Origin: Paraspadella gotoi
Taxonomy: Eukaryota; Animalia; Chaetognatha
Assembly: GCA_051294375.1 (NCBI GenBank)
Contig: CM119263.1
Location: 9,912,432-9,976,431, forward strand
Direction of reading: 5' to 3'
DNA length: 64,000 bases
Every line of letters starts with the position of its first letter. The first letter of the stretch is position 1. The notes below the pieces were generated by a model. The model saw only the letters and a list, made by a program, of their open reading frames with translations, searched no databases and was not told where the DNA came from. Below are positions 1 through 57,032 of this stretch, in pieces. The translations under genes were made by a program, and so were the position numbers.

Positions 1-3000
1 TGATGAAAAACTTTTTCAAGCCTTGCTACTTTTTCTCGCTTAGGCTTTATTTCTTTTGCTACAGCACAGTAACCCATAACAGCTTCGACAAATCTCAATA
101 AACCAGCTCCAGCCCGAGATATTATCTGTACTTCTTGTATAGTTGCACCCATTTCCTTCATAATACTTTTGACTGCTCTTACTTGGGAGGTGGAAATATT
201 GTCAACATCAAGTTCTTTTAGAGATGCAAGAAAACCAACATCAGCCATCATACCCTTTGCAGTTTTCCAAGAAACATCTTTAATTCCTTTTAAAACAACA
301 ATACATTCGCAAACTTGTTGAACAACTTGTGGGGGTTTGGCAAATGATCTTATTTCAGTAATATCAGATTTTTCCAAAGTATCTAGTGCTTTCCTGGCAG
401 CTTCTAAAGCAGGCAATGCTTCAGATAGAGCTTCTTCTGCAGATGCTTTTTCAACAGCAATTTCTTTATTTTGAATTTCAATTTCCTTTTGTTTTTCCTT
501 CACGACTGATTTTTTACCTTGTGCTTTCTGAGTGCCATCAGAAATTTCTTGTAAGAGCTTTTCACAAGCTTCTGTTTTTTCTGTTACTGCAACTTTTTGA
601 ATTGCAAGTTTTTCATTCATATCTTTTAACTGAATACTGGCTTCATCTAGCTTTTGTATTCCTCCGACAAGACGCTGACAGGATGCTAATATAAAATTGT
701 CTTTTTCTGTTAAAAGGCTTCTGTATGTTTTGATATAATCTAAAAAATTTTGGGGAGTGACATAATTTTGACGTCTTAACTTTTGTGCAAAAATAATGGA
801 GTATTCATTAACTAAACAATGCGTGAAAACTACATGCTCAATAATTGCTTCACGATTTTTGTCTGGAATTAATCTATCTGGAATGTAATCAGCTGACAAG
901 TATGAGGAAGCAACCGCGTAAAGTGCTTGTTCTGGCCAGGCAGAAAACCAATCTATCACACAATTGTTCACCAATCCAGGAAATGCCCGACATCTGCTTC
1001 GAAGTGTATCTCCTACAGGAGACATTGCAATTACCATATGTAAGTTACTAGAACATTTATCTACAAAGTATGACCAGATGGCTTCCTTAGTAAAGCCATA
1101 ACCAGAGTGCAGTGCCTCGTTTCTTAAGTCGGACACTATGCTTTCCTTTTCTTCATCAGCAAATAAAGCGGGTACCATTCCAGATGTAAGCATGTTATTA
1201 ATAAGTTCCAGAAAACCTTCTTCCATTACATGCTGATCACCAAATAAAAACACCGTTTTTTTGTTTTCAATCCCAATTTGATTATATAACGTTTTTAAAT
1301 CTTCTCGTAAGTTTGTTTCATTATAACCTCTGCACAGCTGAATTTCAAAGATTTCACACTCAGCAGAAAAGGCAGCAACTCTTGTTAAACATCTTTTACC
1401 AGACCCACCAACACCCACAAGAAGAGCATTGCCATGATCTAGCCTAAGTAGTCTATGAATTCTCGTCATATGTTCTAAAGCATCATCAAACAAAACTAAA
1501 TCAATTGGGCTCATATGTTCATTATATTCTTCAACGATTTCTTGAAATAAAGCTTTTGCTGCTTCATAATCTTGAATATCTTCATAAATCCGAGGTTCTG
1601 AGTCTTCGAGGGCACTTCTAAAATCACCAAAAACAATAGGATCTTGCAAAATGTAATCAATATGGTCCTTGAACGATGTTGATACAAGGTTTTTAACAAT
1701 CTCATTAACTACCTGTTTATCTTGCTCATTAATTAAACGATCAGAAAAAACCCTTAAACATTCATTTCGCCAAACCCGAACAAAATGCTCGGGATAATCA
1801 ATTCTGTCGGGTACGGTTATACACATACCATGTATTACACGAGACAGGTCTCTAAGATTAAAAACATAGTGGAATTTAGATGGAGTTGGAGGAAGATCAA
1901 TAATTATTTGTTTGTATAAGTTCATCATAAGCTCCACCAATTTTGGCACAATATCTTGAACACCACGTGAAAATCGTAAACAATGTCCCTGTAAAATAGA
2001 ACTAAAAATGTGCATCAAAGACTCATCTGAAGCGGCTGTAACATTGAATAAAGAAAAAAAAGATAAAAATCGACTATCCACTTCATTTCTCCCACCACCA
2101 GCTTTACCCATGGCTGCTAAAATATCATAATCTTTAATATTCTTCCAACTTAAATCTTTACCACGTCCATACATGCCTCCTTTTTCTAAAAATAATTTAA
2201 GAAGAGCAATAGGTTGCTGAGTACCATATTTATCCATTTGCGGCATATTCATATCATCCATAAAAATCACTAAACGACGACCCGCTGGAGGACCATAAGT
2301 ATCTTTAGTTCTTTTTTCTACATTTGCTTCAAGATGACGTTGAACATCCATTGAGGTCGTTCTGGAGGAAAAATTCATATTTAACTGAAGAGAAGAATCA
2401 GCATCTAATGTTTTTAAATATGATAAAACTGATGCTGTCTTTGATGTTCCCGTTTCTCCAACCAAAACAACTGGTTTTGTTATTCTTAACATTAATTGTA
2501 ACAGCCATGTTGAACGTTCTGTATCTGCTGTAGGTACCAAAATATCATTAAATTTAATACCAGAATTGTGATGATATTGCGGGAGTAGATCATGCCACAG
2601 TCTCCATTTTTTATCCAATTCATCAAAATGATAATCATACATGGTCTTTGAAAGAGGAAGCGTTCCTCCACATCCATCAGGACCTGCAAGCATGCTGTCA
2701 TCAGGAATGGTTGACATTGATGCTAATCTTTTTGCATAACTGTCAAATTTGGGTCGTGATTCTTCAATCAAACTACCACCAAGAGACCAAAATAGTGCCT
2801 GAATGAAATAACATTCTAATACCTCTGGTTCTGAACATTCTTTCTGAAGCTGTGCATCAAGCATGCTGCACAGTTGTTTTACCATTTGAAGAGGGGTGAG
2901 AGGGCAAATAGTTTTCAGCTTTGCCACTTGTTTTGTTTCCAAAATACCTTCATGTATGTAACAAATTAAGTGGTCGATATATTTTTCATACAGATTTTCT

Positions 3001-6000
3001 AAACCTTCCTGTTCTTCTAATTTTTTGTCTTTAATCCATCTTTTCCAATAAGGTTTATGTCCTAGGTTTTTAGGATCAATATAGACCATGCCACATCTAG
3101 AAACTGTCGCTGGAGAAGCATACTGTAAATCAGCCACTTCAAAGAGAATTGCGCAATGAGACTGAAGTCTTATCCTCTCTCCATTAGCAAGTGTTAATAA
3201 TTTATTATCATCCATCACTGAATTCATATTTTCTACCCAAAGAGCATCAACATCGCCATCAAACAGAATGTACTTTTTTTCTTTTTTTTCTGTTGGTCTA
3301 TTAATTTCTCGGAATAGATTTGAAAGTAAACCATCGGTCCAATCGCGTGTATTAGGATCAAGCACCCCATATAGCTCTACGACTGAGCAGGATTTGGGAT
3401 TTAATGTATAAAGTTTGGTGTTTATACCTAGCTTAGTTTGTCCAGAACACAGTGCATGGATGACAATTGATTTCCCACCACCTGTAGGACCCACGCACAT
3501 CACTGTATGACGTGTCATCATGGTTTCATACAACTGAATGACCTTATCTGCCTGATTTGAGATGGCAATCATCTTTTGTTCAGCCAAGTAATCTTCAACT
3601 GCATCATTGAAGTTTGCGTAGCGAACGCGAGGGCAATCTAACCCGGGAAAAAGGTCTGTAATGAGACCAAGGAATAAAGGGACATCTTCAAAAACAAACT
3701 TGGGCAAATTCATATCTCTTAAAGCTCTCATCAAAACAATATCTTCTGTAAGCTCAGGAGAGCCTCTCTTAAGATTTCCCGCCATAACTAAAACTGATTT
3801 TAAAGCACGAAGACCAAAATCATAGTGATGTTGCTTTGATAACTGTTCCCGAGATAACTTATAAAGCACAGTCATTTTTTTGGCTAAAACTTTAGCTTGA
3901 CTAAATCCTTCTGAAAATAACATTATTTCACAGATTTGCTGCATATCTGGCACAATACAAACAACTGGCCTAAATAAAGCTTTAACACTTTCAGGGAGTT
4001 CAGTACGACCCGCATAACCTGGATTCATTGTGATTATAATTCCAACCCTCCTATCTAAAGCAATTTCTTGTCCCTCAAACTGAAACCGTTTAGCATTTAA
4101 TGATAAAGCATACTGTATAGTTTTCAATTGGGCAGAAATAACAGATAATACAGAAGCATCTATTCGATTGAACTCATCAAAGCATCCCCACGCTCCACAT
4201 TGAGCTAAACCAGACAAATTTTTACCAATTGATTTAAAATCCATTCCCTCACCACAATTAGTAACTATGCAAAGTAGTCCAAGCGCTTTTGCTAAATCCT
4301 TTGTAGTTTCTGTTTTACCAGTCCCAGCTGGACCTGCTGGCGCTCCTCCTAAATGCATGGACATCGCCTGAGTCAAAGTTAAATAGATTCGATCTGTTAA
4401 TGGGGTTATTACTAATCTTCCATTCAAACCCATGTATTCATAGCCATAATAAAAAGCTCCAGTACATTGTTTTACAACTAAATCATCTGAATTTTGTTCC
4501 CAATAAAACCGTAATTGACTCTCCCAATCAAACTCGCGTGAATCCATAATGCTATCCCGAACAAACCCATCAATAATGTCTCTACAATGTACATCAATAA
4601 TAAGAACAGTGTTTATTTTAGTTCTATCATTTGTTTTCATGCGAGGATTTCTAACTCCTTCAACTAATTCCTCTATTTGACCATGCAACTTTTTGGCATA
4701 ATGCTTCATTGCAAGTTTATGCTCACCACCTTTTTTAACTTTTTCAAACACATCTTCTACCTCAGCTGTCCACCAAACTTGATTTGCAGCTAAAACTACC
4801 ATACCCTGATAGTCGAACATCCATTCATATCTTGCTTTTGCATGACAATAAAAAAATATAGATTCTTTAGTAATAAGCCGATTTGTTCTTCTCATTTCTT
4901 GTAAAACTTCTGTCATCCATTCTTCAACTCTTCCTTCAGCAGGGATTGAAAATCTAAACGCCATTTGTTCTCCCTCAGATGAATTCATTGCTCTGACAAG
5001 CATTTCATGATTAGCTCCTTTTTGAAAAGTTAGACTAGAGATATTGTCATACATTTTTATCATATGTTCCTGAACACAGCCAGGATCAGCAGAACCTAAC
5101 ACGCTTAACAGTTCATCATCTGAAATAAAAAAAAACCTAGGAAAAGCATTCCTTTTAGAATCAAGATAATCATTTAAAGACTTTTGGCATTTTTCTAACC
5201 CAATAGATAAGTTTTCTAAATCAGATAATCTGTTAGGAACATGGCAAGCTTCTTTAATATTTGGCCTTTTATTAGTTTCAACCAGTATTTTTTTATATGT
5301 TTTATCAATCATATCAAATTTTTTTGCTTCTTCAGGAAGCTGAGAACGAATGTCACCACCCACAAAGATACTTTCCAAATACATCCACTTCCTCTGAACT
5401 ATCATCCAAACTTCTATCACTTCAGCAATAAGTGATAAGCTTTTTTCCCAATTTTGTACAGTGTTTAAAAATGGACCAATAAAGCGTGAAGCAGACATGC
5501 TTTGTAAATTCATCACATTATCATCCAGGATTTGAAGGATATCATCAACAGAACCTAAAATGTATCCGCGTTCCTTTTTGCCTTTCATGTAGCGTTGTAC
5601 ATTGAATTTCATGTTGTCCCAGGTTTCTTGAATTTCTTTCACACCACTCTCTATTGATAACTCTTTATAAGCTGATGTGACAATTTCAACAATAGTTTCT
5701 TTGTGATTATGAAGATTCATAGCAAAAAGGTTGGCAAGGGTGAATGTTTCTGGGTTCATGTCGAAATCTTGTCCAGTTTTTTCCATGAGCTCCTTCCAAT
5801 GCCTTTCTCGTAAGGCTTTGTTCTTGAGATCAAGGAATAATGGGATGGATGATTTAAACTCTTGCATCTTTTCTTCAAGTACCATTGCTGAAGATAAGCT
5901 CTTAACCTCATGTGGAAGTAAGCGCAAACGCTTCAAAAATGAATCTATACCATCTTGTAAATGCTGAACATCAAGATTAGCCCATAAAGCTTCTGCCCAT

Positions 6001-9000
6001 TCTGCTCTTGCCTTTTTTTGTTCTTCATACAAGGCATAAATTTGTGTTAAACCATTCATATCTTTTTGTACCTGCAGTAAGTCGGGGTAGAGAGTAATGG
6101 GCAGGTCAAAGAGTTTTTCAGCATCAGCAAGATCTTTTTGTACATTTTCATATTTTGTAAGCTCATTCCGATAAGACTTCATTTGATCCATCCCTTTCTC
6201 CAAATCTTGAGCAACAGCACCAGGGCCTTCAGAGCAAAAGCGATTATAAAATTGGGTCAGCTCCTCCCCGAATTCTCTTATTTGTTGCAGGGTAATAGCA
6301 GCAAATTTTTTTTTTACATCTAACAAAGAAGAATCAACCACTTTGGAATCAAAAAAAAGCTTTTCCCATTCTTCATAAATAGAATTTTGCAATGCTATTT
6401 CTTCATCTAATACTGTTAAGTTGAACATAAGTAGTACTCTGTATCGCTCTTGAATGTCTAAATATTGAAATTCAACATTTAAAGTCATTTCTTTTATATC
6501 AGCAATTGTCTTTAGCACAAACTTTAAATCACTAAGGGTTTCAGGCGATTTAGAAAGATCTTCACGTTTTCCATCAATTTCCACTTTAAGAGCATATAGA
6601 TTAGTTCGAGCAGAATCATTTAATAGCTTTCCCAAAATTTGTATCCAGCCTTTAGCATGATCTCTCACAGAATCTGCTAGAGGTCCCATGTGAAGTTTGA
6701 TCATATCTTGATCTTTTGACATCGGTAATTTTTTTATTTCTTCAATAGTTCGACAATAAAATTGAAGTTGTTCATCAAACATGACAACGGTAGGGTTCTT
6801 TGCAAACCATCTATCTAAAACAGCAGATTTATCTACTTTCCAAATTTTTCTATAACGTTTCCACTTGTGTAAGTATTGCTGTAAATTAAACAACATTTTT
6901 TGGTATGTATTTTGAGTAATGTTAAAATAATTTATTGTATCAGAATTCTGAGCAATGTCAGAAAAAAATGTGAAAGTTACTAAATTATCTTCTCCATCAA
7001 CTTTTTGGGGTAGCGTTTCCAAACAAGTTCCAGTCATCCACCGAATAAATATTTTGGTACCTTCTATACAGTCACGAACACATTGCAAAAACAATTTGTC
7101 CAACTCATTTGCAGGTGGATGCAACACAACATCTGGAGCAGCCAAAAGGGTTTCCACTTGAAAAAGTTGATTACTCCCAGCCATGTCTTTGTTAAAACGT
7201 TTCAGATTACTACTAATAAGTCTTGTTAATGTCTTAAAAACTTTTGCTTCCCAGTAGGAGTAATAATTCATCATTTTTTGTGACTTACCAGTATTAGTTA
7301 AAAATACCAAACCTTCCATCTTTGTCAGCAATGGCCCAATCGCACGATATCTTTGGGCTATCACTTCAAAGTCTTTGGCTCTTTCCTTTTCAATAAATTC
7401 AAAAAATTCTTTTGCACTGGGTAAAATGGTGCCAAATTTCAAAGGAGGATACTTGAATAAATCAGTATCTTCAATCATTCTTAATCTTAAATTTATATCT
7501 TTTGCATTTTTCTGTATTTGGTTTACTAAGGATTCAAATTTAGCAATAGCCTGCTGGCACTTACCAATGAAATCAGTAATACCCAGAGAATTCCAGTTAA
7601 ATCGTTTTGAACCAGGCCGAATTACGCGACGTAATTCTTCAATGTGTTCTTGTAGTAAATCTAATTCTGCTTCTTCGAGCAAGCCTAGAATTGTGTGATA
7701 TCTGCTTAGCATGAGATTGAGACCATCAACATGTTTTATGTATTTTTCCTCTTGCAAAGCCACATTTCTTGCTAGCTCAGGTACTGCAAATCCCAAATGT
7801 TCCATATACTTAGCTTCAATTATTATTCGATTTAATTCTGGAGCAAAATTTACAACATACTTAACTTCTCTTTGTGTTCCCTGGACATCATATTCTAAGG
7901 GTTTATTGTTATCAACATTGCTAAATGTCAACATTTCATCTTGCTTTATCAACAAGTTTCGCTTTAAAAGACTAGGTAGAGTAGATTCTACTTCCTCTTG
8001 CCATTGTATGAATTTCTGCTCCTCAAAGTCTCGCATTCTTCTACCAACAACCAAGTAATTGCTTCTTGCTTCCAAAGCTTGTTCACTTTTGATCATATCA
8101 TCCATGGCTTGAAAACTAATTATTGTATGCTTAATTCTGAAAAACAATGAACGGCACCAAAATATTGATCCTGCCACTGGTGGGTGGTTTTTGTAGAGTG
8201 GAGGAGACTCTTGAAATTCGGTAAAAATAGCATCCATTTTTTCCACCTCTTTACCATATTGCAACAATATGTCATTAAATTTCATCATCATTTGATTATT
8301 TATTGACTCTCTTGATTTAATATGTTTGAAATTCAATAACATTTCGAAGGCTCCTTCAGCTGAGCGTAGTTTTTTAAAAGATTCATCTATAAAGTTCTTA
8401 GCCTCAATTTCAATACACTGTACTTCCCTGTTGAAAGCATCCATCCTAGCCCGCCAAGCCAATGATTTATGACTGATAAATGGATCAAAGGTGACCTTCT
8501 CGATGAGCAAAACTAAAGCATCAACTCGCTTTAAAACAGCTTCAATCCTTTCCGGATCTCCAGTTACGGCTTTTAACTCTGGCCCAAAAATATTATGAAA
8601 TTCTTCCAAAACTTGAGCAACATTATAAAAATCTTGGCAAATTAAAGACATGTAATCAGTTAATTCAAACAATCTTTTACGGTCAAACTCCCATCTAGAG
8701 TCTCTTCCTGAAGCTTCAATTCGAGCCCTTACCTCGAAATATGATTCGCTCCAAAGATCAAGCACTTTCTTTGCCTCACTAGTTTTTCTTTTAACTTCAT
8801 GAGGAGGATCTTCATACAAAGTTCTGACATTAATAACTCTGGCAACTCTTTCAGCAAGTTCCCACGCAATTCTCTCCATCAGGGGCACCATTCTTTCATC
8901 TCGGTTATAATGTCTGGATATAATCCACACCATTCTCAGAGCATTCATCATCGAAGGAATAGTTTCTAAAACCACATGAAAATTGGCACCAAAAGTAATA

Positions 9001-9388
9001 TTTTTAAAATGGCGTTCAAGTGTTGAAAGAAATCGAACATTATCTTTTGCTTCTGTATGAAAGTTACTAAGCTCCGCTCGATGATATTCAAAATTTTGTA
9101 CTACAACTGAATCAGCTTTCTGTAGTACTAGTAAATACTTCCTTACAATTTCTGTTTTTAATTGTTCCAGCAAAGCACTTAAAGCAGCATTTCGCTCACG
9201 CCAAAACTCAATTTCAGCAAGGGGGCCCTTTCCTTGAGGAGTCTTGTTTAACTGCAATTCTAAAGCAGATGCAACTTGCTTACCCCAATCACTAACCACA
9301 GCTTCAAGTGTTTCAATAAGTTCACTGTTACGAACATTATCAGTCATGTGATCACTTATTGGCAGCTCCGGAACATGAAGTCGAACGC
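1..9388 (-). CDS. DNAH10: Axonemal dynein heavy chain 10, exon 8: giant exon encoding tail, linker, AAA1-AAA4 and start of stalk; continues past window start
   Basis: Same reading frame checked at 9386, 4349, 2459 and 269. P-loops [10 protein letters not shown] (~4310-4335), GPTGGGKS (~3470-3490), GETGTSKT (~2440-2460), GVGGSGK (~1395-1415). Acceptor ttttttAG at 9389-9390 joins upstream IEGG to VRLHVPELP. The ORF track lists no stop-terminated ORF in this frame, consistent with it being open to the window edge. Confidence 0.95.
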
Positions 9389-9525
9389 CTAAAAAATGAG
9401 TATATTTTTTCATTTATATTTAAGAGTAAGGAAATTGTTTTAGTTTTTAATTTTATTAGAAATAAGAAGATATGTTTCTACACGCCTTCTTCAGCGCAAA
9501 ACAGATTGTTAAATTTACAAAAGAT

Positions 9526-9692
9526 GTCATTCGCCTCTCAACCCAAAGGTCCAGGGTTCTAGCGCGGTGGTCGCCTAGCAGTTAAGAGGGACGGGGCGCT
9601 TAACCCGCCTGTAACACGGTGTTACAGCCTGATCCAAAGCTGCTTATATTAAACGGTTCTGTCACTAACTCAACAATTATAACTATCTCGTC
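9526..9692 (+). mobile_element. TRIM family A LTR fragment
   Basis: Near-identical to the 3' two-thirds of the family A LTR, with a deletion in the ribozyme P4/P5 region. Confidence 0.8.
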
Positions 9693-9847
9693 ACGTGGAA
9701 CAAAACGGTATAAATTAAAGATTAGAAATGTTTATCAAACAATTCATTAAAATTTAAATGACTGACATTTTTGGTGTCATAATAAAATAACCCCGGGCTA
9801 TAAACGTTTGTAATTCATGTAAAAAAAGCTGTAAACTCATTGAATAC

Positions 9848-10100
9848 CTCCTTCAATCTGCTGTATTGTTCTAGATACAGAGGCCGAAAATTTTTGCATG
9901 TTGACAGTAAATTCGTCTCGTAACATCGCCGCTTTGTTTCGAGATTCAGTGGGTAATGATTTGTCTTCACCACCTGACGCTTGTGATGCAGTGTCTTCGG
10001 ATTGAGAAGGCGAAACTGGGCGCGTCATATCTTTGGTACTTCCCGGAATATGTTTTTCGAACGTTAAATTAGGCTGTAACTGATCCATCAAATCATTTTT
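9848..10100 (-). CDS. DNAH10: DNAH10 exon 7
   Basis: KNDLMDQ...RDEFTVNMQKFSASVSRTIQQIEG resembles the DNAH10 RDEFxxNxQKF...RTxQQxEG segment; cAG acceptor at 10101-10102, GT donor at 9846-9847; phases 0/1 fit neighbours. Confidence 0.9.
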
Positions 10101-15015: not shown

Positions 15016-15252
15016 TGTGGAAGACGATGCCGCGAGCAGTTTAGCGTCCGTTGCACACAAGGTCCCGAACTTCGGATCGGGCTGTAGTCCGACACTACAG
15101 GTGGGTTAGACGCCCCGTCCCGCTTTTACTTGTGTGAATCAGCAGGGCGCGAACCCGAGTCCTTTGGGTTGGGAGGACATCGTGCTACCTCCGGCGCCAT
15201 AGGTGCTGCTGATTCTCGGACGAGTAGCAGGGTATGAAATACTACCGCTACA
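15016..15252 (-). mobile_element. Solo LTR, family D (diverged relative of family A)
   Basis: TG...CA termini, CAAC TSD, tRNA-like A/B boxes (TGGCGCCGGAGG, GGTTCGCGCCC), twister-like fold at 15054-15136. Confidence 0.85.
15054..15136 (-). ncRNA. Twister-like ribozyme in family D solo LTR
   Basis: Same layout as family A with compensatory changes in P3, P4, P5 and T2 (AC:GT); predicted cleavage 15108/15107. Confidence 0.75.
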
Positions 15253-24516: not shown

Positions 24517-25172
24517 TGAAGAGACAGTAATTATTGTTATGTGTTAATGACAGAACCGTTCAATATAAGCAGTCCCTGAGCTTTGGATCAGGTTGTAACA
24601 CCGTGTTACAGGCGGGTTAAGCGCCCCGTCCCTCTTAACTGCTAGGCGGCCACCGGGCTAGAACCCCGGACCTTTGGGTTAGGAGGCGATTGACTTGCCT
24701 CTGGCACCAATGGCTGCTGATGAACGGTTGGTGGATTTTAGTCCACCATACATCCTCCCCTCCCGTAGGGAGAAGTCTGTTGCGTCTCTTCAGTGTATTG
24801 TTGTTGTTGGTGGAATGTTCGTCACCAAGTTGAGGCATGTTGCCTGATGTGTTGTTGTCGGAAAGTGCATCGCCAGGTTGAGGGATGTCGCCTGAAAGTG
24901 TTGTTGCTGCTGTTGTGTTTGGAAGTCAGGCTCACCAATGAAGAGACAGTAATTATTGTTATGTGTTAATGACAGAACCGTTCAATATAAGCAGTCACTG
25001 AGCTTCGGATCAGGCTGTAACACCGTGTTACAGGCGGGTTAAGCGCCCCGTCCCTCTTAATTGCTAGGTGACCACCGGGCTAGAACCCCGGACCTTTGGG
25101 TTGGGAGGCGATTGACTTGCCTCCGGCACCAATGGCTGCTAATGAACGGTTGGTGGATTTTAGTCCACCATA
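24517..25172 (-). mobile_element. Complete TRIM, family A (LTR contains tRNA-like head plus twister-like ribozyme)
   Basis: Two 234-bp direct repeats (24517-24750, 24939-25172), 188-bp internal part, PBS TGGTGAGCCTGAC, PPT GGGAGGGGAGGA, CCAT TSD on both sides. Confidence 0.92.
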
Positions 25173-26461: not shown

Positions 26462-26827
26462 TGAAGAGACAGCAATTATTGTGTTAGTGGCAGAACCGTT
26501 CAATATAAGCTCTCCCTGAGCTTCGGATCAGGCTGTAAAACCGTGTTACAGGCGGGTTAAGCGCCCCGTCCCTCTTAACTGCGAGGCGACCACCGGGCTA
26601 GCACCCCGGACCTTTGGGTTGGGAGGCGAATGACTTGCCTCTGGCACCTATGGCCGCTGATGAACGGTTGGTGGATTTTAGTCCACCCTACATCCCCCCC
26701 CTCCCGTAGTCTGTTGCGTCTCTTCAGTTAATTGTTGTTGTTGGTGGAAAGTTCGTCACAAAGTTGAGTCATGTCGCCTAATGTGTTGTTGGCAGTAAGT
26801 GCTGTAGGTGGATTTTAGTCCACCATA
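26462..26827 (-). mobile_element. TRIM family A copy, 5' LTR mostly deleted
   Basis: Intact 3' LTR, PPT and part of the internal region; both outer termini kept; AAAT TSD. Confidence 0.85.
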
Positions 26828-40267: not shown

Positions 40268-40431
40268 CTTTCAGATCGGGCTGTAACACCATGTTCTTGG
40301 CGGTTTAAGCACCCCATCCTTCTTAACTGCTAGGCAGCCACCGGACAAGAAGACCGGACCTGTGGGTTTGCGAAGCGAATGACTTGCCCCCTGTATCAAT
40401 AGACGCTGGTTGGTGATTTTAGTTCACCATA
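40268..40431 (-). mobile_element. Degenerate TRIM family A LTR fragment in the DYDC-like intron
   Basis: Colinear with the family A LTR (ctgtaacacc...tcttaactgctagg...gaatgacttgcc...caccata) with many substitutions. Confidence 0.7.
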
Positions 40432-40463
40432 ATAGAAAAATTCGACAGCTTAAAAGTTCAAAC

Positions 40464-45524: not shown

Positions 45525-46210
45525 TGTGGATAAGGCGCTAAGTGGGCTGAAGAAGACTATCCATAACTTCTATAACCCCCTCTAGCAGACATGGAAGGGT
45601 CCAGGGCTTGGAACCAGGCTTGAGGGTTTGCCACGCCCCCAAGGCGGCTTAGGGACATCCTCAAACTTCCCGCAGGGTAGGTACCGGGTTGGGATTGAAC
45701 CGGGACCTAGTGGTCATGAGCTGATGGCTTTACTCAATGAGCCACCGGGTCACAACTGAAAGAGTCATGCTTATAGGCGGGTGAACCTAGGAAATGCCGA
45801 CTACATGCCCCCCCAGATTGTAACCCACCCTGCACTGCTTCCAGTGGAGGGAGGGGAGCAATCTTCAGCACGTCCATGGGCCTGGAATCAGAAGGTTGGA
45901 ATACGCTCGACAGGATGGGCTCACCAGTGTGGATAAGGCGCTAAGTGGGCTGAAGATGACTATCCATAACTTCTATAACCCCCTTTAGTAGCCATGGAAC
46001 GGGTCCTGGGCTTGGAACCAGGCTTGAGGGTTTGCCACGCCCCAAGGCGGCTTACGGCCGTCCTCACTCTTCCCGCACGGTAGGTACGCGGTTGGGATTG
46101 AACCCGGTACCTTGTGGTCATGAGCTGATGGCTTTACTCAATGAGCCACCGGGTCACAACTGAAAGAGTCATGCTTATAGGGGTGTGAACCTAGGCAATG
46201 CCCGACTACA
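45525..46210 (-). mobile_element. Complete TRIM, family B
   Basis: LTRs 45525-45805 and 45928-46210 (TG...CA), 122-bp internal part, PBS TGGTGAGCCCATC, G-run PPT, TTTA TSD; tRNA-like head (TGGCTCATTGAG ... GGTTCAATCCC). Confidence 0.92.
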
Positions 46211-49368: not shown

Positions 49369-49604
49369 TGTGGAGGTATATTCACACCGCCTCACATCCA
49401 CCATCGTTAAGCCAATCCCATTGGCTCAGAGGGGGAACACACCATCCCAAGCGTTGTGTTCCATCCACAGTCCTAACGTCTTCCCTGTGTTGGCAAAGCG
49501 AGACCGTCCTCGGGTAACCGCGCCAGGGGTGCCACTGAGGGTCGGAAGCCCCTAAAACCAACAGTGAGATGCCCCATCCCAATGGGCAGCCCGGCTGTGC
49601 CAAA
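49369..49604 (+). mobile_element. Solo LTR, TRIM family C
   Basis: Colinear with 56777-57032; imperfect TSD ATAC/GTAC. Confidence 0.85.
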
Positions 49605-50803
49605 GTACCCAATAAATTGTACAATTTTTTTCAGGTATTCCCAAAATTTATCTTGGCTAAATTTTACTTTCGCCGACCGCGGTTATGGCAGTTTTTGAAA
49701 AACCATTTAAAAATACTTATTTAAAAAAAAATTTAAAAAAATATTACCAAATTACCCTAAACTCTTTTAACCCTAACCACTAAGGCGTAGTGAAAGTTAC
49801 ATACGAAAATTCTAAAAGTCAATTATGAACAACATACTATCAGTGAACATTAATTTGTAAAAAAGATTAATTTTATGCTTTTTAATTTTCGCAGTAGGCT
49901 ATATTTATATATAGTACTATCCTTATAAAATCGAAAAATTTCAAAATAAGCTCATCTTAATTTTGATTGCAGATTTGAATTCCTCGTCAAAAGTTGATAA
50001 AAGAAAATATAAATCATTTTTAAAAATTCTTTCATTAAGTGGGTTAAAAATTAAAAAAACTATATTTAATATATAAAAAGTTAATTTTCAGCTTAAAATA
50101 TAGCTTTTTCTAATTTTTGACCCACTTAATGAAGGAATTTTTCAAAAAGAGTTATATTTCTTTTTATCAACTTTTTATGACGAATCCAAATCTGCAAAAA
50201 AATCTTAGAAAAAAACTGTTTTGAAATTTTAACATTTATTGATTTAGTACTAGTATAAATATGGCCTACTGTGTAAATTGTAAAATTTATTATAAATTTT
50301 TTTATTACATAAATGTTTATTAATATAATGTTGTTTGTTCCTCACTTTTAGAATTTTAATTAAAGTTAAATTTAGAAATTTTACTACGCCTTACTAACCA
50401 CCCCATAATCACTCCTAACCCTAACCCCTCCCTAACCCCGGTCGGCGAAAGTAGATTTAACCCATTATCTACTGTTAGTATTTTTCATTTGCTCTTTTGT
50501 ATGCACCTCACGGTTCCTTTTTACATCGATTTAATCGGCATGGAGTGCACAAGAATGAGATGTACCTACTATATCTTTTCACTTGCATTTCTTTACACAA
50601 AATTTTTTTCATTTTTCAAGCCTAATTTCCCAGAATTCGAAAACAAAATAGCACTTCTGATTTATTTTAAATGATCAAGTGATTAATTATAAATTATAAT
50701 TTATATAATATTATTTAACCGCAATAACAGTTGAGGTCAATCCCATACATACGCCTGCATTGGTTACTACGTACATGACTATTCTCTCTAATTTTAAACC
50801 AAC

Positions 50804-51450
50804 CTGATGTCTCCGTTGTCGTCTTTAGGGGCCGATCGTGGGAGTAGCTTTAACTTGGGTCTGGCCGCGGCCTCTTCCGCCGTAGGTTCTCGTAAATCGT
50901 CGAAGTTTGCTCCCCTGCCGCTCTCCCTTCTCGGTCTACCCCCAGATCCCCGACTGAAACCCCCACCACTTCCTCCGGATTCCCTCCTAGCTCGGTTTTC
51001 CCCCGTAGGCCCGCGTCCGCCAAAATTTCCCCGAGTTCCGCCCCCACGATAGTTTTCCCTGCTTCCGTAGCCGCCTCCTCCGAAACCTCTGCTACCGCCG
51101 AAATCGTCTCTGATCGATGGCATGTCTCTCCCCTGCGAGCCACCACGATCTTCGAATCCCACAGGGGGGCCGCCAGGCGGAGATCGGTAGTCTCTGTCGC
51201 CAACCATAGGGGGACCACCAACGGCACCGCGTCCGCCGCCTATACCACGGCTACCGCCGCGGCCGGCCACCCCGGGACCTCGCTGATCCTTACGTCCTTC
51301 GGCAACGTCGACGCGGATGTTCTTGTCTTCGAAGAGTGCGCCGTCGAAAGAGAGGGCATCTTTCAAAGATTCTCGAGTATCGAACTCCACGTAACAAAAT
51401 CCCTTGAACTTGTCCGTATCACGATCTCGCACCAGCCGGACGTTTTTAAC
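50804..51450 (-). CDS. EIF4H: eIF4H exon 5: RRM second half, RGG-rich region, [10 protein letters not shown] motif
   Basis: [23 protein letters not shown] (RNP1) ... [10 protein letters not shown] ... [12 protein letters not shown]; ctgcAG acceptor, GTtggt donor. Confidence 0.95.
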
Positions 51451-52004
51451 CTGCAGAAAAACATTCGGATTTAACTTCCTTGAGGGGTATTGAAGACGTG
51501 AAGAAATAGAGGGAAAATAATGGTATATTTCGCGAAGAGTAGAAACGAGAGAATGTATCGCAAGACAAAATATACTGACGGGCGGGAGGAGGAGGAAAGA
51601 AGAGGAAGAGGAGAATTGGACGGCAGGCTAAATCCTCCTCTGACTTCAAATTTTAATTAAAATTGAATGAGAACAAGTTTGAGCAAACAATGCCTCATCT
51701 GTTCACGATAATTTAGCGGTAAATAGCTAATCAGATAATGAACTAATTATTCAAATAATTATTTAATAATTAATAACTATTATAATTTCTAATATTTAAT
51801 GAGTTAAGCATCAGCAGAAGATTAATTAATTAATCATCCGATCGATTACATTATTCAATTACAGTAATTAAGGGTTACCTTTACTTTCACCGACCGGGGT
51901 GAGGGAGGGGTGAGGGAGGGATTAGGGTGAAGAGTGGTTTAAGTGTAGTTTAGGGTTAGGGGTAGTTAAGGGTGGTTAAGGGTTATATCTTTTAAAATTT
52001 TTTG

Positions 52005-52181
52005 CTACGCCCCCAAGGCGGCTTAGGGACATCCTCAAACTTCCCGCAGGGTAGGTACCGGGTTGGGATTGAACCCGGTACCTAGTGGTCATGAGCTGAT
52101 GGCTTTACTCAATGAGCCACCGGGTCACGACTGAAGGTGTCATGCTTAGAGGCGGGGTGAACTTTGCTATGCCCGACTACC
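52005..52181 (-). mobile_element. TRIM family B LTR fragment
   Basis: Near-identical to 45630-45805; truncated inside ribozyme P3. Confidence 0.8.
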
Positions 52182-53510
52182 ATATCATTAATATAATGAT
52201 TTATTAATAACTGTGGAATTGAACTCGGTTCTTCCCATTCACGGTCGATCCCCGACATCTCGTAACCAATTCGGATTGATATAAATGATATTAATTTCAC
52301 TTATATTAGAGCCAAACTTCGTCAATGGGGTGGGTCAGAAGTTTGATTTGGGAACCTTTCCAAATGAAACTTCATACATTTCTGAGAAAACTTTCAATGG
52401 AGCAAAATTTTCTAAAATGGCAAGAAGCATTAGTAATTAATTTTTTAATATTTATTTATAGATAGGAAATGTCAAAAAATTTTTTTGGAATTTTTTATTT
52501 TTAAAAGCAGATTCAAATAGCTTATGAAAAGTTATCTACACAAAGTATAATTCTTTTTTAAATATTTTGATGATAAGTGGGTTAAAATTGAGAAAAACCT
52601 TAAAAAATCATCATTATCATCCAATAATTTTAGCAGTTTTTACTAATTTTTAGTAATAAAACATCAAAATTTTAAAAATTGTAATTATATTTTTTGATTA
52701 ACTTTTTAAGCTCTATCAGAATCAATTAAAAAAACCTAAAATATCCCAAAAAAATTTTTAACATTATATACGATATAATAATATTAATTAGCGAATTACT
52801 CATGGTTCGGAACATTTTTGCAAAAAAATATTTTAACACAATAATTAATACCAATAATGGATTAGTTTAATGCTGTTCCCATTAAAATTTGAATTTGGTC
52901 GGCTACCGCTACTTATATAAACCCTTATATAAATTCTCTCTATATACAAATTGACCTTTTGTTATTATCAAACAAAAGAGCATTTTTATTTGAATTAACC
53001 AGCTGATTCCATTAAACATAATTCCATTGTTATTTCATCAAGCTTAGAAAGCACTTTAAATTGTTTAGAGGAAAAATTAACAGACTCACATACTTGTTAT
53101 CAATTTTCCCTTTTTCTTGTTAATGTTTATTTTAATTGCAATCGTTTAATTAATTAATTAATTATTGTTATTGTATTGATATAGATATTTTGATTGCTTG
53201 CTGGTATAAGCATTTGATTATTTTATTAAGGTACCATTTTACAAGCGAACCAAGCAAGTTGGTTTAATAAACTTTTTATCCAAGCAAAAATAAACAATCT
53301 CAACGCCACGAGCGCCAACGCGAGCGACATCGCCACTTCCGGTTGACGCTCCTGTGGTAACATCTACATAACTACAATAACCACTATGCATAATTCTTCA
53401 ATTAATCAATTATCTAATTACTTTCGCTTTTATTTATATTTTACTCCTTGCCCATTCGCGAGTGACCCCAATTAATCTTTACTATACTTTTAATATTTAA
53501 TAAACATTAA

Positions 53511-54116
53511 GGCGTAATAAAATTTCTAAATTTTACTTTAATTAAAATTCTAAAAGTGAGGAACGAACAACATTATATTAATGAACATTTATGTAATAAA
53601 AAAATTCATAATAAATTTTACAATTTACGCAGTAGGCCATATTTATACTAGTACTAAACCAATAAATGTTAAAATTTCAAAACAGTTTTTTCTAAGATTT
53701 TTTTGCAGATTTGGATTCGTCATAAAAAGTTGATAAAAAGAAATATAACTCTTTTTGAAAAATTCCTTCATTAAGTGGGTCAAAAATTAGAAAAAGCTAT
53801 ATTTTAAGCTGAAAATTAATTTTTTATATATTAAATATAGTTTTTTCAATTTTTAACCCACTTAATGAAAGAATTTTTAAAAATGATTTATATTTTCTTT
53901 TATCAACTTTTGACGAGGAATTCAAATCTGCAATCAAAATTAAGAAAAGCTCATTTTGAAATTTTTTGATTTTATAAGGATAGTACTATATATAAATATA
54001 CCCTACTGCGAAAATTAAAAAACATAAAATTAATTTTTTTTATAAATTAATGTTCACTGATGGTATGTTGTTCATAATTGACTTTTAGAATTTTCGTATG
54101 TAACTTTCACTACGCC
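53511..54116. mobile_element. TTAA-flanked GG...CC MITE (Kolobok-like termini); other copies at 49784-50390 and ~15939-18077
   Basis: ttaa|ggcgtaataaaattt ... aactttcactacgcc|ttaa; three ~600-bp colinear copies, one interrupted. Confidence 0.75.
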
Positions 54117-55828
54117 TTAATAAACATAATACATAAGTACTAAGTAACCATTAGTAAAAGAACTACTGGACGTTTTTTGTGTATAAGTTTCATTTCATAT
54201 TTATTTATTTAATATTCTAAGTAGAATTTTTTGTTTAACGTAGTAAAATTAAGAGTTCAATTAAGAGTTCAATTTAGAGTATCAAAAGTGAATTATTTAA
54301 AATTTTAAATCTTTTTTCAAAATATATGACCTGTTTAAATTATTATAACAAAAATATTATTATTTATATAAGTATCATGAAAGAGCCTGAGAAAAAAAGA
54401 TTTAAGATAGCCAATCACAATTTGATAAAAATTATAAATTTATTCTCCAGCTATTGATTTTTAAAAAGATGTCTCATTTTTGAATATCCCAATTAAATTA
54501 AAGCTGGGCCAGTTAAATTTTATACTACAGTATTCGTAAGTATAAAATTCTCTTCATATTTTTAAGGGCTTTCTGAGGATATTAATATTGTTAATATTTT
54601 AATAAATACTTTGTTTAAAAAAATGCTAAAAGTTCAAATAAAAATTGAATTTAAAAACAGTGAGTTGGAAAATGAAACCCGATTTAACAAGCCAACTTTC
54701 TCCACTCATTGTCAAAGCATATCTAACTTAACTGATCAATATAAAATTTTAACACATAAATAGTTTTAGTATTTTCTACTCAACTAAATTTTAAAATCAG
54801 TGAAACAACCACTGGTTTGAAAATGACAGCGTATTTCTACCGGCGCTTGTAAAATTGTCACTATGTAAGCATGTTTTTTATTACATCGATGATGAGAAGC
54901 TGTATATAAATTTTCAGCATCATACACCCAAATTTAATCATAAAAAAAGCGATCTATAATTTGGAACGCCGACGACGCCTACGCCACTTATGCCCAAAAG
55001 CGTTACTAGATCGTCGCAAACGCAAAGCGATTGCGACGATAAAAAAAATCGCCGGCCGAATTCTTTAAAAATTCTAATGCCCGCTAAGAAATTATTTTGC
55101 TGCCTCTGTTCAAACGCCGGTCGCAAAACGTTACCTTATTAAATAAGTTATTTGAAAGTATTTTTAGAATTATTTACTTTACAAATGTAAACCAAATTTT
55201 CTCTCTCTAGCCGTATAAAAACGAATGCACATTGTACAATTAGCCAATTCGATTCCATGCGCTTTTTTAATTGTAATAAATCGATTCATCTCATTTTCAT
55301 TTTATTCGCCATTTTTATCTCGACCACCTCTACACTGAATAATTAATGTTTAAAGCTAGACAGGACGGACATCATTTTTTATGCATAATTTGAAATTTTA
55401 AAATAATTCAAATGTTATTATGAAAAAAGTCTTTCAACAAGTTTGAGCAAAATTTTGAGCAAAAATTGAAGATGACAACTCCAGCAACGATTAATGGATT
55501 GAATAATTAATTAATTAATTGAATAATTAATTGAATAATTAATGCAGCTTGCATTTACATTTAATATATAACAAGTTTGAGCAAACAATGCCGGATCTGC
55601 CCACGATCATTAGCGGTGATTAATTAATAAATTAGTTAAAACATTAATTAATAAATTGTTTGCACAAACTTGTTTTTCGGTCTTTTCGTCTGGTCACTGA
55701 CCAGGACAAAAGCAACTACGATGATGGCGATGATGAATTTATTGATTAATTATTTAATAAAATTATTATTTAATTATTTTATTGATTGGTAAATCAACTG
55801 ATTGATTAATAAGTTAATTGGTTGATAG

Positions 55829-56287
55829 TATGGTGGACCAAAATCCACCAACGTTCATCAGCGGCCATTGGTGCCGGAGGCAAGTCATTCGCCTCCCAAC
55901 CCAAAGGTCCGGGGTTCTAGCCCGGTGGTCGCCTAGCAATTAAGAGGGACGGGGCGCTTAACCCGCCTGTAACGCGGTGTTACAGCCTGATCCGAAGCTC
56001 AGGGACTGCTTATATTGAACGGTTCTGTCACTAACACAACAATAATTACTGTCTCTTTATTGGTGAGCCCGACTTCCGAACACAACAGCAACAACAACAC
56101 TTTCAGGCGACATGCCTCAACCTGGCGATGCACTTTCCTTCAACAATACATCAGGCGACATGCCTCAACTTGGTGACGAACTTTCCACCAACAACAAGAA
56201 TTCACTGAAGAGACGCAACAGATATCTCCTTATCTGCTTATATTGAACGGTTCTGTCACTAACACAACAATAATTACTGTCTCTTCA
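55829..56287 (+). mobile_element. TRIM family A copy, 3' LTR mostly deleted
   Basis: Full 5' LTR 55829-56059, PBS TGGTGAGCCCGAC at 56061, internal region, last ~55 bp of 3' LTR; ATAG TSD. Confidence 0.88.
55935..56010 (+). ncRNA. Twister-like ribozyme (P5 permutation) in family A LTR
   Basis: AGCAATT-AA-GAGG-GA-CGGG-GCGCT-TAA-CCC-GC-CTGTAAC/GTTACAG-CCTGA-TCCG-AAGC-TCAGG-GACTGCT; pseudoknots T1 TCCG:CGGG and T2 GC:GC; predicted cleavage 55959/55960. Confidence 0.75.
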
Positions 56288-56326: not shown

Positions 56327-57032
56327 TGTGGCGGTATATTCACACCGCCTCACGTCCACTCATGCCTTCAGCCAAATCCATTGGCTCAGAGGGGAACACA
56401 CCATCCCAGGCGTAGTGTTCCATCCACAGTCCTAACGACTTCCTCTGCATTGGCAAAGCGAGACCGTCCTAGGGTAACCGCGCAGTGACTGAAGCCGTCA
56501 CTGAGGGTCGGAAGCCCCCAAAGCCAACAGTGAGATGCCCCATCCCAATGGGCATCACAGGCAACCCGGCTGTTGCCATAAGTGGTGAGCCCTACTATCG
56601 AACACGCAACCTTCTCAGGGTACGCTATGACAAACGCCTATGCCCCTGGGGTACGCTACGACAAACGCCTATGCCCCCACAACTCGCGCTCTCTCTCTCT
56701 CTCCCACTATGGTAACAGTCTTGTCAGACACCTCTCAGGCTTGAGGAACCTGAGTGATGTCTTGACCCGGGGATCCTGTGGCGGTATATTCACACCGCCT
56801 CACGTCCACCATCCTTCAGCCAAATCCATTGGCTCAGAGGGGGAACACACCATCCCAGGCGTAGTGTTCCATCCACAGTCCTAACGACTTCCCTCTGCGT
56901 TGGCAAAGCGAGACCGTCCTAGGGTAACCGCGCCAGTGACTGGAGCCGTCACTGAGGGTCGGAAGCCCCCAAAGCCAACAGTGAGATGCCCCATCCCAAT
57001 GGGCATCACAGGCAACTCCGGCTGTTGCCATA
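56327..57032 (+). mobile_element. Complete TRIM, family C
   Basis: LTRs 56327-56580 and 56777-57032, 196-bp internal part, PBS TGGTGAGCCCTAC at 56583, GTAG TSD. Confidence 0.92.
56899..56979 (+). ncRNA. Twister-like ribozyme in family C LTR (other copies at ~56449-56528 and ~49489-49562)
   Basis: GTTGGC-AAA-GCGA-GA-CCGT-CCTAGGG-TAA-CCGC-GC-CAGTGAC/GTCACTG-AGGG-TCGG-AAGC-CCCC-AAA-GCCAAC; predicted cleavage 56925/56926. Confidence 0.7.

Follow-up and report, generated by a model that had tools for sequence, protein, structure and literature searches.

How do short, non-coding retrotransposons that appear to cleave their own RNA come to be transcribed? The question is raised by the element at 55829–56287 (plus strand) of the 64 kb window, the whole stretch of DNA analyzed here, in whose LTR a tRNA-like segment lies directly in front of a predicted twister ribozyme. 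The first-pass annotation had proposed that a Pol III-type promoter sits immediately 5′ of the ribozyme in every family of such elements, and that the promoter copy in the 3′ LTR is kept within the self-cleaved monomer and so regenerated in each new insertion.

LTR families in the window

Repeats abound in the AT-rich animal DNA of the window, and comparison of its 64 kb with themselves reveals four families of GC-rich, LTR-like repeats (A–D). Families A and D can be aligned with each other (72% over 141 nt), and families B and C have no BLAST similarity to A, D or each other. Three elements are complete, with two LTRs each: A2 (24517–25172, minus strand, 656 bp, duplication ATGG, LTRs identical at 225 of 234 positions), B1 (45525–46210, minus, 686 bp, duplication TAAA), and C1 (56327–57032, plus, 706 bp, duplication GTAG as read from the sequence). 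No open reading frame of 120 amino acids was found across these three. The elements are thus non-coding and 0.66–0.71 kb in length, and they possess a primer site, a purine tract, and 4-bp target duplications. A primer site starting TGGTGAGCC lies immediately 3′ of the 5′ LTR in A2, B1, and C1, and a site starting TGG follows all four intact 5′ LTRs. This site, which resembles that of Helenus-2_SyJa, is presumably of the Trp type. The purine tract preceding the 3′ LTR is clear in A and B and weak in C, and the target duplication is exact in six of the seven elements checked, with the family C solo LTR (49369–49603, plus) matching at three of four letters.

The element at 55829–56287, A1, is a defective member of family A flanked by the duplication ATAG. 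Its 5′ LTR (55829–56059) is made up of a 5′ hairpin, the tRNA-like head, the predicted twister, and a tail, and it is followed by a primer-binding site at 56061–56073 that begins TGGTGAGCCC, the first 10 nt of which are common to A1, B1, and C1. The purine tract and the first ~177 nt of the 3′ LTR are missing, such that only the last 54 nt of that LTR (56234–56287) remain, with neither head nor ribozyme. Family A also includes A3 (26462–26827, minus, duplication ATTT), in which the 5′ LTR and primer site are mostly deleted and the boxes are decayed (18/23 in the profile described below), an LTR fragment that has no A box (9526–9693, plus), and a decayed LTR fragment (40270–40434, minus). The remaining copies are a family B LTR fragment with a head (52001–52180, minus; 20/23) and a family D solo LTR (15016–15252, minus, duplication GTTG) that is multi-copy in other runs. 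The summed contig depths of the LTRs are thousands of times the single-contig depths, and many different flanks occur at the LTR ends; as summed contig depth is not a copy number, the LTRs are read only as highly repeated.

Several minor features of the LTRs were also observed. The family A LTRs start with TA rather than TG after the target duplication (3/3: 55829, 25172, 26827), and the C1 LTR ends in TA rather than CA (56580, 57032). The P1 linker is among the places where the two B1 LTRs diverge (18 positions and 5 gap bases in all), suggesting that B1 is an old copy or a recombinant of two subfamilies. The first 40–50 nt of the LTR form a hairpin in all four families, upstream of the likely Pol III start and with unrelated sequences, and short tandem duplications (48 and 31 nt) are found in the interiors of A and C (56103–56194, 24802–24906, 56618–56677). 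Loose contig ends at 15067 and 15125 (runs X1 and X5; 10–12 contigs each) join the B box and twister core of family D to different flanks, which are mutually complementary at the location of P5. These are signs of a fifth family related to D, provided that both loose ends belong to one family. Single family D contigs also lack the twister core between the two P5 strands (joints within 15041–15125).

The tRNA-derived head

The A box of A1, TGGTGCCGGAGG, is located at 55869–55880 and has C in place of A14, and the B box, GGTTCTAGCCC, is located at 55913–55923 and has T in place of R57. Both of the family A boxes quoted in the first-pass annotation are therefore present. Taken alone, such a box pair would be modest evidence for a promoter. 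In shuffled sequences, 71, 59, and 40 of 1000 were as good as families A, B, and D, respectively, at free spacing, and 10, 6, and 9 of 1000 when the spacing of a tRNA (A-box start to G53 = 45) was imposed. A strict count of mismatches to the textbook A box fails to separate family A from shuffles (81–94 of 500 as good) and was replaced by the spacing test and by a profile.

The main test was a rigid profile that allowed no gaps, built on 23 textbook invariant positions of tRNA and run over both strands of the 64 kb window. All six sites scoring at least 20/23 are LTR heads of A (55869, plus; 25131 and 24709, minus), B (46148 and 52119, minus), and D (15199, minus), and each is in the sense orientation of its ribozyme. 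The best site outside these LTRs scores 19/23. A seventh head, in the 3′ LTR of B1, scores 21 after a one-base shift. None of 2000 composition-matched nulls reached the observed score in any of the three families. This result is decisive: the LTR heads of families A, B, and D are degenerate tRNA genes that keep the exact register of a tRNA. The head of A1 spans 55862–55933 (plus) and retains 20 of the 23 invariant positions in register, with CCC at the anticodon position and no cloverleaf. In B1 (minus strand) the A box is at 46148 and is followed by a perfect B box at 46104, with CAT at the anticodon position. The family D head (21/23, minus) has its A box at 15199 and B box at 15155.

The heads depart from the consensus at defined positions. 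Family A lacks A14 and R57 and family D lacks A14 and A58, departures that are seen in most copies and not in this window alone. Among the variants listed for A and D in contigs of other runs, no majority variant restores A14, R57, or A58. A functional tRNA gene was considered and rejected, as ARAGORN reports 0 genes and the stems in standard register have 1–4 pairs each. The A heads are called as tRNA only at a threshold that yields 7 other calls as well, and Rfam gives no tRNA or 5S match in families A–D at E up to 10. Rfam matches to Plastid-ycf2 lie on the strand opposite the family B head and probably reflect its likeness to tRNA.

Comparison of A and D indicates that the boxes are selectively conserved, to judge from the alignment. 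Identity is 10/12 in the A box, 9/11 in the B box, and 47/63 in the twister core (75–83%), as opposed to 19/54, 3/11, 2/5, 6/18, and 19/62 (27–40%) in the other segments (leader, spacers, and tail). A 16-nt block between the boxes (55892–55907, plus) is identical in A and D and is predicted to pair with both boxes in the RNA. This block is more conserved than the boxes themselves, and selection could consequently act on the head RNA rather than on a promoter. The heads of A, C, and D are all predicted to fold as two-hairpin junctions.

Self-priming was considered and rejected, as the 3′ end of the head is by eye not complementary to the primer site. Run X8, presumably RNA, mostly follows X1 at ~1–2% of its depth over elements, unrelated repeats, and flank alike, and is not taken as a measure of expression. 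In the family D head, a variant (15156 C>A, within 15139–15182) accounts for ~80% of the depth in X8, from 2 contigs only, and for <1% in X1 and X5, and could represent a strain difference or an abundant RNA.

Family C is distinct. Its profile score is 13/23, which 1982 of 2000 nulls reach, and yet its box pair, a perfect A box with a one-mismatch B box, is matched by only 1–6 of 1000 shuffles. In C1 the A boxes are at 56382 and 56830 and the B-box-like G53 positions at 56417 and 56866 (plus), leaving an inter-box gap of 23–24 nt as compared to the usual 32–33. The pair in family C thus exceeds chance, although the head is not in tRNA register. Read on the strand that does not carry the ribozyme (56853–56885 and 56404–56436, minus), the family C head may resemble 5S rRNA in its C-box region, and Rfam returns no 5S match in this family. 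A 5S rRNA promoter region within the LTR is a feature of the TRIM groups Cassandra and Ajax. If the likeness is real, the B box of C may be a by-product of an inverted 5S fragment. The claim that the promoter occurs in every family accordingly holds for the box pair, which is found in A, B, C, and D, and must be narrowed to three of the four families (A, B, and D) for a tRNA-derived head. On balance, what the first-pass annotation saw is upheld for A, B, and D and, weakly, for C.

The predicted twister ribozyme

A predicted type-P5 twister occupies 55935–56010 (plus) in A1, with the predicted cut between U55959 and A55960. Each LTR of A2 (cuts predicted at U25041 and U24619, minus), B1 (U46054 and U45651, minus), and C1 (U56475 and U56925, plus) likewise holds a predicted twister, and the family D solo LTR would be cut at U15108 (minus). 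The predicted cut falls 36 nt (A) or 40 nt (B) past the B box, which bears out the earlier statement that a promoter-type head lies just 5′ of the ribozyme.

Support for the twister is found in its pairing. A twister descriptor was tried on 12 LTR copies and matched 10, in eight of which T1 (3/3) and T2 (2/2) are fully paired. T1 achieves its three pairs via three different sequences (CCG/CGG, TCC/GGA, CGG/CCG), T2 is altered on both sides in family D (AC/GT), and P3, P4, and P5 remain paired despite sequence differences from family to family. A one-base bulge or mismatch is present in P2, and a T1 pair is broken in two twisters (the A2 3′ LTR and the fragment at 9526). In run X1, the letter that prevails at 55939 (99% of depth) would make P5 fully paired. 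A looser pattern, derived from these same copies, gives 6 matches in the window and 0 in 100 shuffles. By comparison, Rfam Twister-P5 scores 16.6 bits against a threshold of 37.6 (E 0.85), in family B only; a partial twister-P1 match is seen in C (E 7.6), there is no twister match in A or D, and none in the window reaches the gathering score. The pairing pattern is thus much stronger support for the predicted twister than the Rfam scores. A hammerhead core is absent from the elements.

Relatives were also sought in viral and metagenome contigs. The exact A/D twister motif has 0 matches there, and a B box followed by the twister pattern has 0 viral matches and 11 metagenome matches, none passing the pairing checks; for pattern matches elsewhere these checks were passed by 0/11 metagenome and 0/104 viral matches. 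With matches either absent or failing, no relative was recovered from these contigs outside this organism group.

In the predicted twister, P1 is reduced to a 6–8-nt linker that can form 2 bp in C and 0–1 bp in the other three families. Twisters are reported to tolerate a missing P1 and bulges in P2 given intact pseudoknots and catalytic residues (PMC11662667; PMC8501958), and in vitro cleavage is efficient in natural twisters that lack a good P1 (PMC11662667). In A1 the linker GGCGCT (55953–55958, plus) is self-complementary at 6/6 positions, and full self-complementarity is seen in 9 of 12 copies: all five from A, the one from D, the two LTRs of C1, and a single B copy out of three. The remaining B copies have 2/6 and the C solo LTR 6/8. 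The chance of two inner pairs is ~0.12 per independent family, or 0.002–0.017 overall depending on whether B and D are included. As P1 is mostly a short palindrome, the ribozymes of the two LTRs may work as a pair, a hypothesis with a parallel in hammerheads with palindromic tetraloops, which cleave better as dimers (PMC7229834, PMC6765202). No dimeric twister of this kind was found among the papers listed by a single literature search.

Transcription, replication, and relatives

The reading favored here, at a probability of about 60%, is that these are non-coding mini LTR retrotransposons in which a tRNA-derived head is followed by a predicted twister within the LTR, and which are likely transcribed by Pol III from the head and likely replicate via a ribozyme-cut, circularized monomer. 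First, TFIIIC would bind the A and B boxes and Pol III would start just upstream of the 5′ LTR A box. With no internal terminator, Pol III would then cross both LTRs and stop at the first T-run of the flanking DNA. Such read-through needs the absence of sense-strand TTTT, and TTTT occurs on the sense strand of 0/5 elements; this offers weak support for read-through, as shuffles lack TTTT in 12–92% of cases. Next, cleavage by both twisters would drop the ~100-nt 5′ head and the 3′ tail to leave a 400–450-nt unit without a terminal repeat. The ribozyme would fix both RNA ends in this way, rendering an exact start site and terminator unnecessary. Since a cut monomer without a terminal repeat requires circularization or an end-to-end jump for LTR synthesis, as in the retrozyme model (PMC4918200), a host ligase such as RtcB, which is described as ligating animal retrozyme RNA into circles in vitro, would close it. 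Finally, a Gypsy-type partner would prime at the primer site, copy across the junction, and rebuild two LTRs, each with head and ribozyme. The predicted fold of the head RNA as a non-tRNA junction would keep tRNA-processing nucleases off the circle.

The geometry of the elements is consistent with this scheme. The stretch between the predicted cuts equals one LTR plus the interior (422 nt in A2, 403 nt in B1, and 450 nt in C1); it starts just past the 5′ head and ends just past the 3′ head, and so contains one promoter copy. The suggestion that the 3′-LTR promoter is kept inside the monomer therefore fits the predicted cuts, and needs to be completed by the circularization step, which it omitted; regeneration of a promoter from the 3′ LTR is common to every LTR element and is not special here. 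Families B and C are unrelated to A or D by BLAST, yet have the same head-then-ribozyme order. A three-LTR tandem, as expected from copying round a circle, is not found among the five two-ended elements in the window, nor does the 64 kb contain a further primer-site match that could mark a Gypsy partner. Overall, the Pol III interpretation appears plausible, geometrically sound, and partly precedented.

Other explanations can account for parts of these data. The elements could be true twister retrozymes transcribed by Pol II, from their own upstream signal or by read-through, with the head a captured-SINE relic kept for an RNA fold used, for example, in packaging or reverse-transcriptase recognition. 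The single retrozyme promoter that has been mapped resembles a Pol II promoter (PMC12029980), and it has been proposed for retrozymes that their ribozymes make usable RNA out of any read-through transcript (PMC7761336). The consensus departures at A14, R57, and A58, the fully conserved 16-mer predicted to pair with both boxes, and the two-hairpin junctions of the A, C, and D heads are all in keeping with such a relic. Against this reading, A, B, and D have lost their cloverleaf stems yet retain a box spacing of exactly 45 nt, family B has a perfect B box, C retains both boxes in an otherwise unrelated head, and only ~40 nt of LTR is available upstream of the head. Transcription by Pol II is considered unlikely. 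A chance resemblance of GC-rich, structured LTR sequence to the boxes is scarcely credible: 4–7% of shuffles match A, B, and D as well at free spacing, and C fails the tRNA profile, but the full profile (0/2000 nulls) refutes chance for A, B, and D, the heads occur on the sense strand only, and the boxes are selectively conserved.

A different possibility accepts transcription by Pol III and places the elements with Helenus or Cassandra, transposing from an uncut, terminally redundant RNA while a slow twister mainly trims or destroys solo- and 3′-LTR transcripts. An uncut transcript would have a long terminal repeat, running from the head to the LTR end, most Helenus families transpose without any ribozyme (PMC10886601), P1 is nearly absent, and the window contains no tandem arrays. 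Against this stand the compensatory conservation of all twister pairings across four families and the efficient in vitro cleavage of natural twisters lacking a good P1 (PMC11662667), which together make transposition from uncut RNA improbable.

The Pol III-transcribed, ribozyme-cut elements favored here have counterparts in two described groups. Helenus elements (TRIMp3; Kojima 2024, PMC10886601) are likewise short and non-coding with an A/B-box tRNA-like head in the LTR, and share the 3′-end tRNA primer site, the purine tract, the 4-bp duplications (animal type), and the occurrence of several families per genome. The 656, 686, and 706 bp elements are within the Helenus size range (311–1263 bp), the family D B-box variant is also found in published Helenus LTRs (sturgeon), and Pol III use is putative in both (PMC10886601). 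Families A, B, and D fit Helenus on every feature compared here. Most of the published Helenus LTRs inspected end soon after the head, often with a T-run, whereas 130–180 nt containing the twister and no T-run follow the head in the present elements. In the available text of PMC10886601, "twister" occurs 0 times and "ribozyme" only in a reference title. In its supplement (DataS1), inspection by eye of the gall wasp LTRs of Helenus-2_SyJa and Helenus-2_SyUm places a type III hammerhead core immediately after the head. The hammerhead loops are complementary, a T-run is absent, and the primer site differs from that of the present elements by one letter. This candidate hammerhead, apparently unreported, would occupy the same position as the twister here; no ribozyme was seen by eye in the other Helenus LTRs inspected (PMC10886601).

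Plant LTR retrozymes (Cervera 2016, PMC4918200; PMC7761336; PMC12029980) provide the second comparison, having one self-cleaving ribozyme per LTR, as predicted here. They share the monomer without a terminal repeat, the 4-bp duplications, the primer site, and the purine tract, and a circle intermediate and Gypsy partner have been proposed for them as modeled here (PMC4918200). In contrast to the present elements, they use a type III hammerhead, a tRNA-Met primer, and RNAs of 600–1000 nt (as compared to monomers of 403–450 nt and a primer site apparently not of the tRNA-Met type), and have no tRNA-like head. Retrozymes are described as lacking evident promoters (PMC7761336), and a 2026 preprint places LTR retrozymes primarily in plants, with no mention of twister in the text available (10.64898/2026.07.22.740005). 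By our interpretation, the chaetognath elements would be built like Helenus and would work like a retrozyme.

Precedents also exist outside LTR elements. The schistosome Sm-alpha repeats have a tRNA-derived Pol III promoter upstream of a self-cleaving ribozyme (PMC6765202, PMC2770079), and a promoter at the 3′ end of the cut monomer, the same logic as here, has already been described for them (PMC6765202). They differ in being non-LTR tandem repeats with a hammerhead, and single inserted copies are said to lose their promoter and their capacity to propagate (PMC6765202), a limit that the LTR frame would remove by returning two promoter copies per insertion. The twister of Perere-3 likewise trims retroelement RNA (PMC8501958); it is of type P1 and located at the 5′ end of a coding LINE, unlike the permuted (P5) twister with minimal P1 found inside the LTR here. 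The engineered, synthetic Tornado system uses flanking twisters and RtcB to obtain circles from Pol III or Pol II transcripts (10.1101/2023.07.11.548538).

The components are thus known separately: tRNA-headed LTRs in Helenus, ribozyme LTRs in plant retrozymes, and a Pol III head before a hammerhead in Sm-alpha. A literature search outside Repbase and most subscription journals turned up neither an LTR element bearing a twister nor an LTR retrozyme with a Pol III head. Two groups that have been described separately, mini LTR elements with a tRNA head and LTR elements with a ribozyme, would meet here in a single animal element. The present elements would also offer a direct answer to two questions: how retrozymes come to be transcribed, and how a Pol III promoter in both LTRs can give usable transposition RNA without a terminator. 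For eukaryotic twister ribozymes, they would provide a concrete function within LTR elements. At 400–450 nt the units lend themselves to in vitro assays, and a naturally occurring cassette that combines Pol III, twister, and circle formation would be of practical interest for circular RNA expression. More tentatively, there may be an animal class of self-transcribing LTR retrozymes with a shared primer type, in which a Pol III head is combined with an interchangeable ribozyme per LTR (twister here, hammerhead in gall-wasp Helenus-2) and the twisters form a domain-swapped pair by annealing of their palindromic P1 linkers; this extended proposal is possible but doubtful. Were the paired model true, cutting would be favored only in full two-LTR transcripts and the monomer ends would be held together for ligation, so that the elements would parallel, in nature, both the Tornado circle system and double hammerheads.

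Two further features of the window were observed. An intronless eIF4H-like frame (50794–51627, minus), whose named relatives, sought with 50797–51519, are distant and spread across many animal phyla, sits between the arms of a 613-bp inverted repeat (49781–50393, 53508–54119) and is possibly a retrocopy or a captured gene in a DNA transposon. At 1–10000 (minus), exon-like coding stretches (e.g., near 8500–8700 and 1000–1200) have, by eye, the look of a large motor-protein gene.
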